DNA of 64,000 nucleotides from a virus (Duplodnaviria > Heunggongvirae > Uroviricota > Caudoviricetes): IMG/VR virus record IMGVR_UViG_3300016476_000987. One strand, given 5' to 3'. This document shows, one piece after another, positions 35,153 through 35,746 of the stretch. Each line of letters opens with the position of its first letter. The stretch's first letter is position 1. A model generated the notes under the pieces. It did no database searches. It was not told the DNA's origin and saw only the letters and a program-made list of their open reading frames with translations. The position numbers were made by a program, and so were the translations under genes.

Positions 35153-35272
35153 CGAGGGGAAAGTAACCTAAAGAGAGCCTCAAATGGTGAATGTCTGTAG
35201 CTTATCTAAGCATAGCAGATTGTGACCGCCGGTAATGATCTCAGCAGGTGACACACGGGAGAGACCGTACAT

Positions 35273-35376
35273 AGTCAGGTGGCGATAATGGATATACGCA
35301 CCCTTAGTTCAGGGAGTATGGAAATATGAGGTAATGAATACCATACAATGTGCAAGTTCGAATCTTGCCCTGACCG
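35273..35376 (+). ncRNA. non-canonical tRNA-like element 6 (paralog of element 5)
   Basis: AGTCAGG/CCTGACC + G (A1-C72 mismatch). D arm GCG-ATAATGGATATA-CGC. Only CCCT-TAGTTC-AGGG sits where the anticodon arm should be. Variable hairpin GTATGG...CCATAC. T arm GCAAG-TTCGAAT-CTTGC. Shares GGGAGTAT..GAAATAT with element 5. Confidence 0.5.
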
Positions 35377-35507
35377 CGCAGAAATCCAACACAACGACGT
35401 GGTAGCCATTTTCGGATGGAGAGTAACCGTGAAGTAATAGTAGCGGAGCATACCCAAAAAAATGTTATCGGGACGTGCAATGGTTGACAGCCGGAAAGAC
35501 GGCAAAT

Positions 35508-35592
35508 GGTCAAATAGTGTATGGCGCACAGAGGAAGTAGTCGCAGCAATGTAGACCCGAATCGAGGGTGGGTTCGATTCCCAGTTTGACCG
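35508..35592 (+). ncRNA. non-canonical tRNA-like element 7 (different acceptor)
   Basis: Acceptor GGTCAAA/TTTGACC + G. D-like GTG-TATGGCG-CAC. T arm TGGG-TTCGATT-CCCA. No standard anticodon arm was found, only the hairpin ACCC-GAATCGA-GGGT. Confidence 0.4.
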
Positions 35593-35699
35593 CATATTCC
35601 CCTGCATAGTGCGGAATGGTGTGGAGTAATCAGGTAGGCGCACCCCAAAACCAGTAAGGTTATGAGAGGCAAAACAATTGTCTGACACTGGTAAAATCG

Positions 35700-35742
35700 T
35701 GACAGCGTGGAAAGACACCCTGACAGCGTGGAAAAGACACGC
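35700..35742 (+). repeat. tandem direct repeat (2 copies, 21/22 nt)
   Basis: TGACAGCGTGGAAAGACACCC followed by TGACAGCGTGGAAAAGACACGC, ending 4 nt before the CAT-anticodon tRNA. Confidence 0.8.
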
Positions 35743-35746
35743 AATT

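Follow-up and report, generated by a model that had tools for sequence, protein, structure and literature searches.

Conserved, folded small RNAs with a shared terminal stem-loop between the tRNA-like genes of a phage tRNA island

We analysed a 64-kb stretch of DNA (64,000 nucleotides, nt; hereafter the window) from IMG/VR record IMGVR_UViG_3300016476_000987, part of the genome of a large, uncultivated phage with an average guanine-cytosine (GC) content of 34.7%, and focused on the interval 35153-35746, which lies within a phage transfer RNA (tRNA) island and is not junk spacer. Two tRNA-like genes, E6 and E7, separate three spacers in this interval, SA, SB and SC (35593-35746), and comparison with related loci indicates that at least two of them encode small RNAs that are conserved and folded; none of the three matches a catalogued family. 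A sequence-only reading of the same DNA had suggested that uncharacterised structured RNAs are encoded between the tRNA-like genes, both here and in three spacers further upstream, S1 (32421-32563), S2 (32652-32772) and S3 (32876-33005). Conservation and compensatory base pairs bear this out for SB, for S1 and, more weakly, for SA, but not for the 5' part of SC, for S2 or for S3. The same reading had allowed that the spacers might prove unconserved in relatives, which is not the case for SB, S1 and SA, all of which have homologs. The related loci, fetched from IMG/VR and from metagenomes, are numbered L001-L217, and the coordinates of the features are collected in Table 1.

The most extensive evidence in the interval itself comes from SB, which on comparative grounds is a conserved structured RNA. 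Its first relative was found by blastn in L086, where it is 81% identical over 141 nt between protein genes that cannot be aligned with those of the window, and a metagenome scan with a 20-mer from the invariant 5' region of SB added 15 further loci. The covariance model R2 aligns 15 distinct SB sequences, all of them metagenomic. The closing helix P1 is invariant (CAAC.CA at 35387-35393 with UG.GUUG at 35479-35485) and encloses three hairpins which are variable in length and sequence, which covary and which are joined by the invariant linkers ACGACGUGGUAGCC, GGAGAGUAAC, AGCAUA and ACGUGCAAUGGUUGACA. The four-way junction so formed is invariant and hints at a pocket for a ligand or a protein. 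Across the alignment 98.4% of the cells are paired and 10 of 27 pairs show compensatory changes, a result that none of 500 shuffles equalled, and sliding the partners by 1-3 columns lowered the pairing to 23-43%. The boundaries of SB also follow those of its neighbours: its 5' end lies at 0 or -1 nt from the discriminator base of an upstream tRNA or tRNA-like gene in 9 of 14 contexts, and in 8 of those 9, as well as next to a tRNA in L211, its 3' end falls between -2 and +1 nt relative to the start of the following tRNA or tRNA-like gene. SB is accompanied in L086 by the scaffold element E5, the two being 80-88% identical to their window counterparts amid unalignable flanking genes.

S1, outside the interval, gave a comparable result. 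A pattern scan of IMG/VR returned 26 loci, and the covariance model R1 has 27 matches, 19 of them distinct, in whose alignment 92% of the cells are paired and 20 of 40 pairs are compensatory, again unmatched in 500 shuffles; a tRNA or tRNA-like gene starts 0-18 nt downstream of S1 in 12 of 20 contexts. For SA, a single homolog was found by the metagenome scan, at 1583-1703 on the minus strand of L205, a metagenome contig of 2.2 kb and the nearest relative that we found; blastn and nhmmer searches of 160-202 fetched loci had given none. The two copies are 82% identical and all 24 predicted pairs are kept, four of them by double changes, so that SA is supported as a conserved folded RNA, though more weakly than SB and S1. 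Its closing helix is formed by AGUAACC (35162-35168) as the 5' strand and AGGUGAC, and a C-to-U change in AGUAACC in L205 is compensated. L205 also holds a copy of SB (~83%), a tRNA-Met 92% identical to that of the window and the downstream open reading frame (ORF) at 66%. In L205, however, SA stands directly before tRNA-Met, the place of SC in the window, instead of before E6, and the units have therefore been shuffled between relatives. No further SA homolog was found by covariance model in ~1.86 Mb (the window and L001-L200 except L160), nor by a pattern scan of IMG/VR.

S2 and S3 have no homolog by blastn or nhmmer among 160-202 fetched loci, and of two IMG/VR pattern scans in search of homologs of SA, SC, S2 and S3 one returned only L086 and L160 and the other nothing. 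Together with the 5' part of SC, S2 and S3 may be lineage-specific RNAs, decayed units or filler. We also considered the spacers as decayed scaffolds, but position-matrix scans of SA, SB and SC show no remnant above shuffle level.

SA, SB and SC all end in the same short module, SA in a variant of it and SC in two copies. The module has the form UGACA-stem-GAAAGA-stem-AAA, in which no variation occurs in the UGACA flank on the 5' side, in the closing G-C pair or in the GAAAGA loop. The two copies in SC had been described from the sequence as a 21-nt direct tandem repeat, and Tandem Repeats Finder (TRF) does report one at 35700-35740 (period 21, 1.9 copies, 95% matches); it is no simple repeat, however, but two conserved, covarying stem-loops (35700-35720 and 35721-35742). 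The 3' ends of SB (TGACAGCCGGAAAGACGGC) and of the L086 copy are similar to the unit TGACAGCGTGGAAAGACACCC, and within the SB family the terminal stem (helix 5) carries double changes in three of its four pairs. The SA variant fits TGACA-N5-GRRAGA, for which 0.14 occurrences are expected in the window, and the SA copy of L205 keeps the GAGAGA loop with one extra G-C pair. Nor is there a CRISPR array or simple repeat at 35700-35742, where only two copies abut, and SB and SA each end in a single copy of the unit; likeness of the module to a CRISPR repeat or to the 16S anti-Shine-Dalgarno sequence was compared by eye only, with no complementarity seen.

About 20 instances of the module were found by a regular-expression search of the fetched loci, and it occurs in about 27 distinct forms across related phage loci. 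When GACA-N4-GGAAAGAC-N4 was searched for without requiring complementarity, 20 distinct sequences were obtained in 1.95 Mb, against ~0.1 expected from base composition, and in 17 of these 20 all four variable stem positions are complementary. In an ungapped alignment of 19 module sequences 94.7% of the cells are paired and four of five pairs covary, with no match in 500 shuffles. S1, SB and the module contain many conserved G-U pairs, which would be A-C mismatches on the other strand, and the RNA units are for this reason specific to the plus strand. Taken together, the alignments show that SB, S1, the stem-loop and, more weakly, SA are conserved, folded, strand-specific and modular, that their boundaries coincide with the ends of tRNA or tRNA-like genes and that they are reshuffled between phages.

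The order seen in the related loci is a scaffold 3' end, 32-124 nt of variable sequence, the module and then, 2-6 nt on, a tRNA-like, tRNA or transfer-messenger RNA (tmRNA) gene, while in some loci a U-rich tail follows the module instead of a tRNA. The four copies in the window are followed by AAAU, by ACAU, by the next copy (after 35700-35720) or by AAUU, and then by a tRNA or tRNA-like gene, with no U-tract; a terminator scan found none at these copies, and some copies elsewhere bear AAAUUUUAU-type tails. The module stands before only 8 among 262 scaffold 5' ends. It is part of the RNA that precedes it, not a leader of general use.

Several side observations concern the module. Related islands contain tmRNA genes, of the standard form in L134 (7429-7801), L040 (9493-9958, minus strand) and L086 (5724-6218) and permuted in L131 (7495-7755) and L156 (7681-7943), and in two of these, L134 and L040, the tmRNA 5' end follows the stem-loop at a distance of 4-5 nt. 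A conserved GC-rich segment at 800-940 of L131 and 250-385 of L156 ends in the stem-loop followed by UUUAAUUUUAA, with no adjoining tRNA-like gene, and could represent a further RNA family, one in which the module serves as a terminator-like 3' end. In S1, the linker GGUCUUGU (32470-32477) contains an invariant single-stranded GUCUU that is complementary over 5 nt to AAGAC of the module loop GGAAAGAC, which could reflect a kissing contact or pure chance.

The tRNA-like genes that adjoin the spacers belong to a family that we refer to as the scaffold. Six elements in the window have the frame AGTCAGG...GGTTCGAATCCTGTCCTGACTA (32564-32651, 32773-32875, 34420-34528, 34820-34906, 35030-35152 and 35273-35376, the last being E6), and a scan of IMG/VR for the scaffold 3' end found at least 120 contigs with family members, a single locus holding as many as 7 copies; the loci with such scaffolds are L001-L120 and L185-L202. 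Members share a constant 5' module (AGTCAGG-TG-GCGGAATGGTAGACGC, the acceptor strand and a tRNA-Leu-type D arm) and a constant 3' module (ACAGGTTCGAATCCTGT-CCTGACT-A), these 24-27 nt ends being near-identical across the contigs. The middle is an insert of 20-100 nt that is unrelated in sequence and length between members; short inserts are plain hairpins with loops of 3-5 nt, and the scaffold RNAs therefore cannot decode. Their Leu-type D arm and A discriminator suggest that they could be leucylated. E6 scores 24.7 bits with the position matrix of the 5' module and 31.7 bits with that of the 3' module, for shuffle maxima of 14.0 and -0.5, and the Rfam tRNA model gives it only a partial, weak match of 20.2 bits. 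Among 185,579 species genomes the 3' 24-mer is present in only 18, and all 18 are contigs of metagenome-assembled genomes (MAGs) with insert-bearing elements, mostly Bacteroidota (Chitinophagia, Sediminibacterium, Flavobacterium, Saprospirales). Mimicry of a host tRNA was considered and rejected, as none of the 18 matches is a canonical host tRNA. The two scaffold modules do not occur together in any GenBank phage, and a search with the scaffold consensus matched ordinary tRNAs only.

Further observations were made on individual scaffold copies. Some have insertions in the D loop (L056, L059 and L086 4213-4392) and some have T-arm-like hairpins nested in the insert (L193, L103, L109, L036). 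Two window elements are 88-93% identical to relatives with the insert included, amid flanking genes that cannot be aligned (32773-32875 with L012 521-626, and 35026-35151 with L086 4973-5098), and the stem changes in their inserts look compensatory, judged by eye; the inserts thus appear to be conserved, exchangeable cassettes. Isolated relics of the scaffold 3' end without the 5' half occur at 32981-32995 of the window (CAGTCCTGGCTACT) and at 5190-5220 of L086 (AATCCTGTCCTAACTACT), suggesting decay or partial deletion of elements.

E7 is a more diverged case. The sequence-only reading had assigned it a tRNA topology with a different acceptor stem and no normal anticodon arm, and this is confirmed: the acceptor stem GGTCAAA/TTTGACC and the T arm TGGG-TTCGATT-CCCA are present, together with a D arm GUG..CAC, and the anticodon arm is absent. 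In its place E7 carries a conserved hairpin, G-NN-GCAGYAAUGUA-NN-C, with an 11-nt loop, and its insert GUAGUCGCAGCAAUGUAGACCC is homologous to the inserts of canonical AGUCAGG frames in L035/L110 and L022/L114. The L035/L110 homologs were recovered by nhmmer (E=6e-4), and among E7, L035 and L022 8 of 22 pairs are compensatory; among them are pairs 1, 6 and 7 of the acceptor, two in the T stem and two in the insert hairpin. Although the ends of E7 have diverged from the family matrices (7.3 bits at the 5' end and 6.1 bits at the 3' end), the alignment places it as a true member of this widespread phage tRNA-like family. As in canonical tRNA (RF00005), it has a 7-bp terminal acceptor stem, a GG D arm, a UUCGAUU T loop and one unpaired base past the acceptor; unlike canonical tRNA, it has the conserved 11-nt-loop hairpin instead of an anticodon stem-loop and is missed by tRNA finders, with no ARAGORN call and no RF00005 match even at E<=10.

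Database searches returned no known family for any of these RNAs. Rfam 15 at gathering score, the scan that the earlier reading had proposed, gives only tRNAs in the window, and at E<=10 the best match in the interval is RAGATH-36 with 16.5 bits for a gathering score of 70, with no family for SA, SB, SC or S1. In the homolog loci only tRNA and tmRNA were matched. A blastn search of S1 and of 35153-35746 against 50,697 GenBank phage records gave no match, and a literature search found no description of the scaffold family, SB, S1 or the stem-loop; a catalogue of viral structured RNAs (PMC10690425) mentions tRNA-like candidates generically only.

The earlier reading had regarded all of these spacers as GC-rich. 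This holds for SA (48.3%), SB (47.3%), SC (48.1%) and S1 (45.5%), all of them above the 95th percentile of 130-nt windows (44.6%), but not for S2 (37.2%) or S3 (40.8%). Its hand count of 27 G or C in 60 nt for 35381-35440 is exact on recount and the hairpins that it quoted for 32877-32967, in S3, are present in the sequence, whereas the AGTAACC/AGTAACA motif that it saw recurring is attributable to chance: the window has 25 matches compared with 19.3 +/- 4.1 in shuffles, which is no enrichment, and the three copies that had been pointed out stand in differing structural contexts. In the minimum free energy (MFE) comparison E7, with a z-score of -2.06, was the sole element to reach this level relative to shuffles.

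Table 1. Features of the interval 35153-35746 and of its surroundings in the window.
Feature	Coordinates	Strand	Basis
SA, structured small RNA folded as a single long, irregular hairpin with nested helices	35153..35272	+	one homolog
SA terminal stem-loop, variant UGACAC-ACGG-GAGAGA-CCGU-ACAU, ending 1 nt before E6 5' end	35249..35272	+	
E6, tRNA-like scaffold: AGUCAGG acceptor, Leu-type D arm, variable insert, T arm; discriminator G35376	35273..35376	+	
SB, structured small RNA, four-way junction and terminal stem-loop	35377..35507	+	covariance model R2
SB terminal stem-loop UGACA-GCCG-GAAAGA-CGGC-AAAU, ending at E7 5' end	35485..35507	+	
E7, tRNA-like scaffold with variant acceptor and T stem, insert hairpin	35508..35592	+	alignment with L035, L022; nhmmer
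SC 5' part, GC-rich, without credible ORF	35593..35699	+	MFE z -0.23
Two tandem stem-loop copies and linker AAUU, abutting tRNA-Met (35747)	35700..35746	+	TRF, module search
Canonical tRNA-Met(CAU) and tRNA-Arg(UCU), last genes of the island	35747..35902	+	ARAGORN, Rfam
Terminator-like hairpin, 15 pairs then T-run, ~40 nt past tRNA-Arg	35945..35982	+	consensus scan only
S1, three-hairpin structured RNA, outside 35153-35746	32425..32563	+	covariance model R1

In light of these comparisons, we consider it probable, with a good deal of room for doubt, that the region is an RNA island from which structured RNAs would be excised by RNase P and RNase Z, the stem-loop acting as their 3' cap and as a handle. 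The tRNAs, the scaffold RNAs (E6, E7) and SA, SB and SC lie head to tail and would be transcribed as one or a few long precursors, in which host RNase P would cut the 5' end of every tRNA-shaped unit and an RNase Z-type nuclease would cut after each discriminator base, since on inspection no tRNA gene of the island encodes CCA. Processing of CCA-less pre-tRNAs is established, and the putative punctuation mechanism rests on it. Among the 262 scaffold starts, 77% have U at -1 and 72% have A at -2; U at -1 is the preference of bacterial RNase P. The cuts would release SA, SB and SC as discrete RNAs of ~120-150 nt, each a family-specific folded body with the shared 3' stem-loop 1-6 nt before the RNase P site, where the stem-loop would cap the new 3' end against exonucleases. 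It is probably also a common protein-binding handle, because the loop and the 5' flank are invariant while the stem covaries. As to what the released RNAs would do, our guess is that they are protein-binding or regulatory trans-acting RNAs for host takeover or counter-defence. A tentative extension, which we think less likely than not, is that the island is a natural RNA cassette array, in which a large set of horizontally shuffled, small folded effector RNAs of (probably) freshwater Bacteroidota phages would be excised by the tRNA-processing enzymes of the host and would, like aptamers, inhibit or decoy host proteins of defence, translation or RNA processing; such RNAs would be shown in two frames, inside the tRNA-like scaffold in place of the anticodon arm or before a UGACA-GAAAGA handle read by a dedicated protein.

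A number of observations weigh against the excision of SA, SB and SC as capped RNAs. Co-transcription, the cleavage sites, the nucleases involved, what the stem-loop does and a trans-acting function are all points that we infer, and we can name no partner protein for the stem-loop handle. The low frequency of the module before scaffold 5' ends, together with the U-rich tails, leaves room for a role of the stem-loop that could be termination instead of capping. No tRNA-like flanks are recognisable at the divergent SB homologs L203, L204, L207, L208 and L211 (in the last on the 5' side), and the comparison behind SA involves two sequences only. The folding energies of the spacers are no better than those of dinucleotide shuffles, with z-scores from +0.09 to -0.99. 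Finally, the 5' part of SC has no homolog by blastn, nhmmer or covariance-model search, and these 107 nt may be non-functional.

Other explanations for the spacers were weighed. One is that they are non-functional, being decayed tRNA-like remnants or drifted filler that is GC-rich by descent. The folding energies agree with it, as do the lack of blastn and nhmmer homologs in the fetched loci for the SC 5' part, S2 and S3, the possible scaffold 3'-end relic in S3 (at ~32981-32995) and the great differences between the islands of related phages; conservation with compensatory changes nevertheless excludes it for SB, S1, SA and the stem-loop, no scaffold remnants lie inside SA, SB or SC, and as an account of the spacers in general we regard it as improbable. 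It is also unlikely, in our judgement, that the spacers are cis-acting leaders or trailers which serve the maturation of the tRNA-like units, for example by positioning RNase P or by blocking pairing between leader and acceptor, and have no later life. The stem-loop does sit 1-6 nt upstream of RNase P-type 5' ends of tRNA-like, tRNA and tmRNA genes, and SB abuts tRNA-like units on both sides. Maturation does not need the stem-loop, however, since only 3% of the scaffold 5' ends have it; SB, S1 and SA are kept as bodies of 120-140 nt with invariant junctions whether they precede an AGUCAGG or variant scaffold, a canonical tRNA or nothing recognisable, and some stem-loops precede a U-tail and no tRNA.

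The mobility of the units could instead point to sites at the level of DNA, comparable to integron attC sites, REP elements or IS200/IS605-type hairpins, which would move the cassettes by recombination or transposition and leave the 21-nt duplication as a footprint. The mosaic distribution, with the same units in different orders in phage genomes that cannot be aligned, would be explained in this way, as would the near-identical scaffold ends and the module duplicated beside a tRNA gene. Against such sites, many conserved G-U pairs are tolerated on the plus strand only, the orientation is strictly co-directional with the tRNAs, covariation spans the whole bodies of SB, S1 and SA and not their ends alone, and neither a transposase nor an integrase gene is present in the island or next to it. 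We see little prospect for this explanation on its own, and it is compatible with RNA function, not exclusive of it.

Two overlapping antisense frames, of ~147 amino acids (aa) each (35275..35718 and 35304..35744 on the minus strand), had been put down to composition by the earlier reading. That they are non-coding stands, but composition alone is insufficient to explain them: the antisense stop-free run of 156 aa compares with 91 +/- 23 aa in composition-matched shuffles and is longer than in 98.4% of them, 1.6% reaching 156 aa. It may be that a purine-rich plus strand, imposed by RNA structure, suppresses antisense stops. The length of the run is what could speak for a real protein gene, which we nonetheless find scarcely credible. 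Neither frame has a Pfam match, both would cross two tRNA-like genes as well as SB in antisense, and neither is conserved among the SB homologs, whose lengths of 124-145 nt differ by non-multiples of three and two of which, L204 and L208, are interrupted by stops in each of the three antisense frames; it is thus from the missing Pfam match and the missing conservation that we conclude that they are not genes. On the plus strand, no ORF of at least 40 aa lies inside 35153-35746.

For the excision of small RNAs from a phage tRNA transcript, the nearest precedent is the small stable RNAs of phage T4. The T4 tRNA cluster contains species 1 and 2 (rnaC/rnaD), non-tRNA RNAs of roughly 100-140 nt that are co-transcribed with the tRNA genes, are excised by host tRNA-processing enzymes and have a function that is still unknown. 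SA, SB and SC resemble them as non-tRNA RNAs of similar size among phage tRNA genes, with a processing that is presumed here, and differ in showing no sequence similarity (by blastn against the GenBank phage records, assumed to include T4); moreover, neither a terminal stem-loop module in common nor an associated family of scaffold RNAs is known from the T4 species. Punctuation by tRNAs is also found elsewhere, in the mitochondrial punctuation model, plant mitochondrial t-elements, MALAT1-mascRNA and the tRNA-microRNA units of gammaherpesviruses. There, tRNA-shaped units delimit neighbouring non-tRNA RNAs through cuts by RNase P and RNase Z, and in the island the unit boundaries coincide to the nucleotide, in line with the proposed cleavage; the known cases, however, are eukaryotic, organellar or animal-viral, whereas the punctuating units here are a diversified phage family with variable inserts.

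The module itself resembles, in style only, boxB of the lambdoid nut sites, a hairpin of 4-5 bp with an invariant purine-rich GAAA-type loop, a covarying stem and a conserved 5' flank. An invariant loop with a free stem and a conserved flank, as in boxB, suggests recognition by a protein or peptide. The module differs in occurring many times per island, at RNA 3' ends by the RNase P sites, while boxB occurs once per operon; its loop has 6 nt instead of 5, and no boxA and no N-like gene were identified. CRISPR repeats and the solitary repeat units of phages (RNA anti-CRISPRs) likewise attach a constant hairpin to a variable segment, but two copies of the module are adjacent without a spacer, its variable partners are RNAs of 32-124 nt with a conserved internal fold, no repeat similarity was recognised and no cas genes were seen. 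A further parallel is man-made: engineered tRNA scaffolds and polycistronic tRNA-guide RNA (gRNA) arrays place foreign structured RNAs inside a tRNA frame or between tRNAs for excision and stabilisation by host enzymes, whereas the arrangement seen here arose in nature and is common among uncultivated phages.

The usual annotation of a phage tRNA island is a set of tRNAs with junk between them, and the one analysed here yields at least three new RNA families (SB, S1 and SA) and the module; several RNA families with a shared module, in this arrangement, have not been described for phages. If the processing model is true, phages harness RNase P and RNase Z of the host to produce many small RNAs from a single transcript, following the same design as the tRNA-scaffolded aptamers and tRNA-gRNA arrays of synthetic biology, and a large unexplored class of phage RNA effectors would be opened, for which candidates with defined ends are at hand.

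The island contains four canonical tRNAs at 31.3-35.9 kb (Leu-UAG, Leu-UAA, Met-CAU and Arg-UCU, by ARAGORN and Rfam), and all of its RNA units lie on the plus strand, co-oriented with the tRNAs. The hairpin after tRNA-Arg is a probable 3' end of the island transcript, as judged from its pairs and T-run. Relatives of the phage were identified through the upstream 269-aa protein at 39 loci, with protein identities of at most 79% and dissimilar islands, and the downstream 180-aa protein has no relative in IMG/VR. Proteins encoded in the window include gp32-like, RecA/UvsX-like, DnaB, PolA, RNR, GroEL-like, ThyA and Tad3 proteins and a glycosyltransferase cluster. The phage thus carries at least one known counter-defence gene: ORF 39391-39945, located ~3.5 kb past the downstream end of the RNA island, has a Pfam match (E=1e-32) to Tad3, which inhibits type I Thoeris. 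A second RNA island, considered at 39.9-41.5 kb, was rejected, as the region consists of paralogous small ORFs (39950-40378 and 40573-40953) which are blockwise 81-94% identical, also match L069 at 7920-8510 and are protein-coding, not RNA. Elsewhere in the window, an ORF with a NUMOD3 motif (14515-15279) adjoins the PolA gene; this motif is typical of the DNA-binding modules of homing endonucleases.

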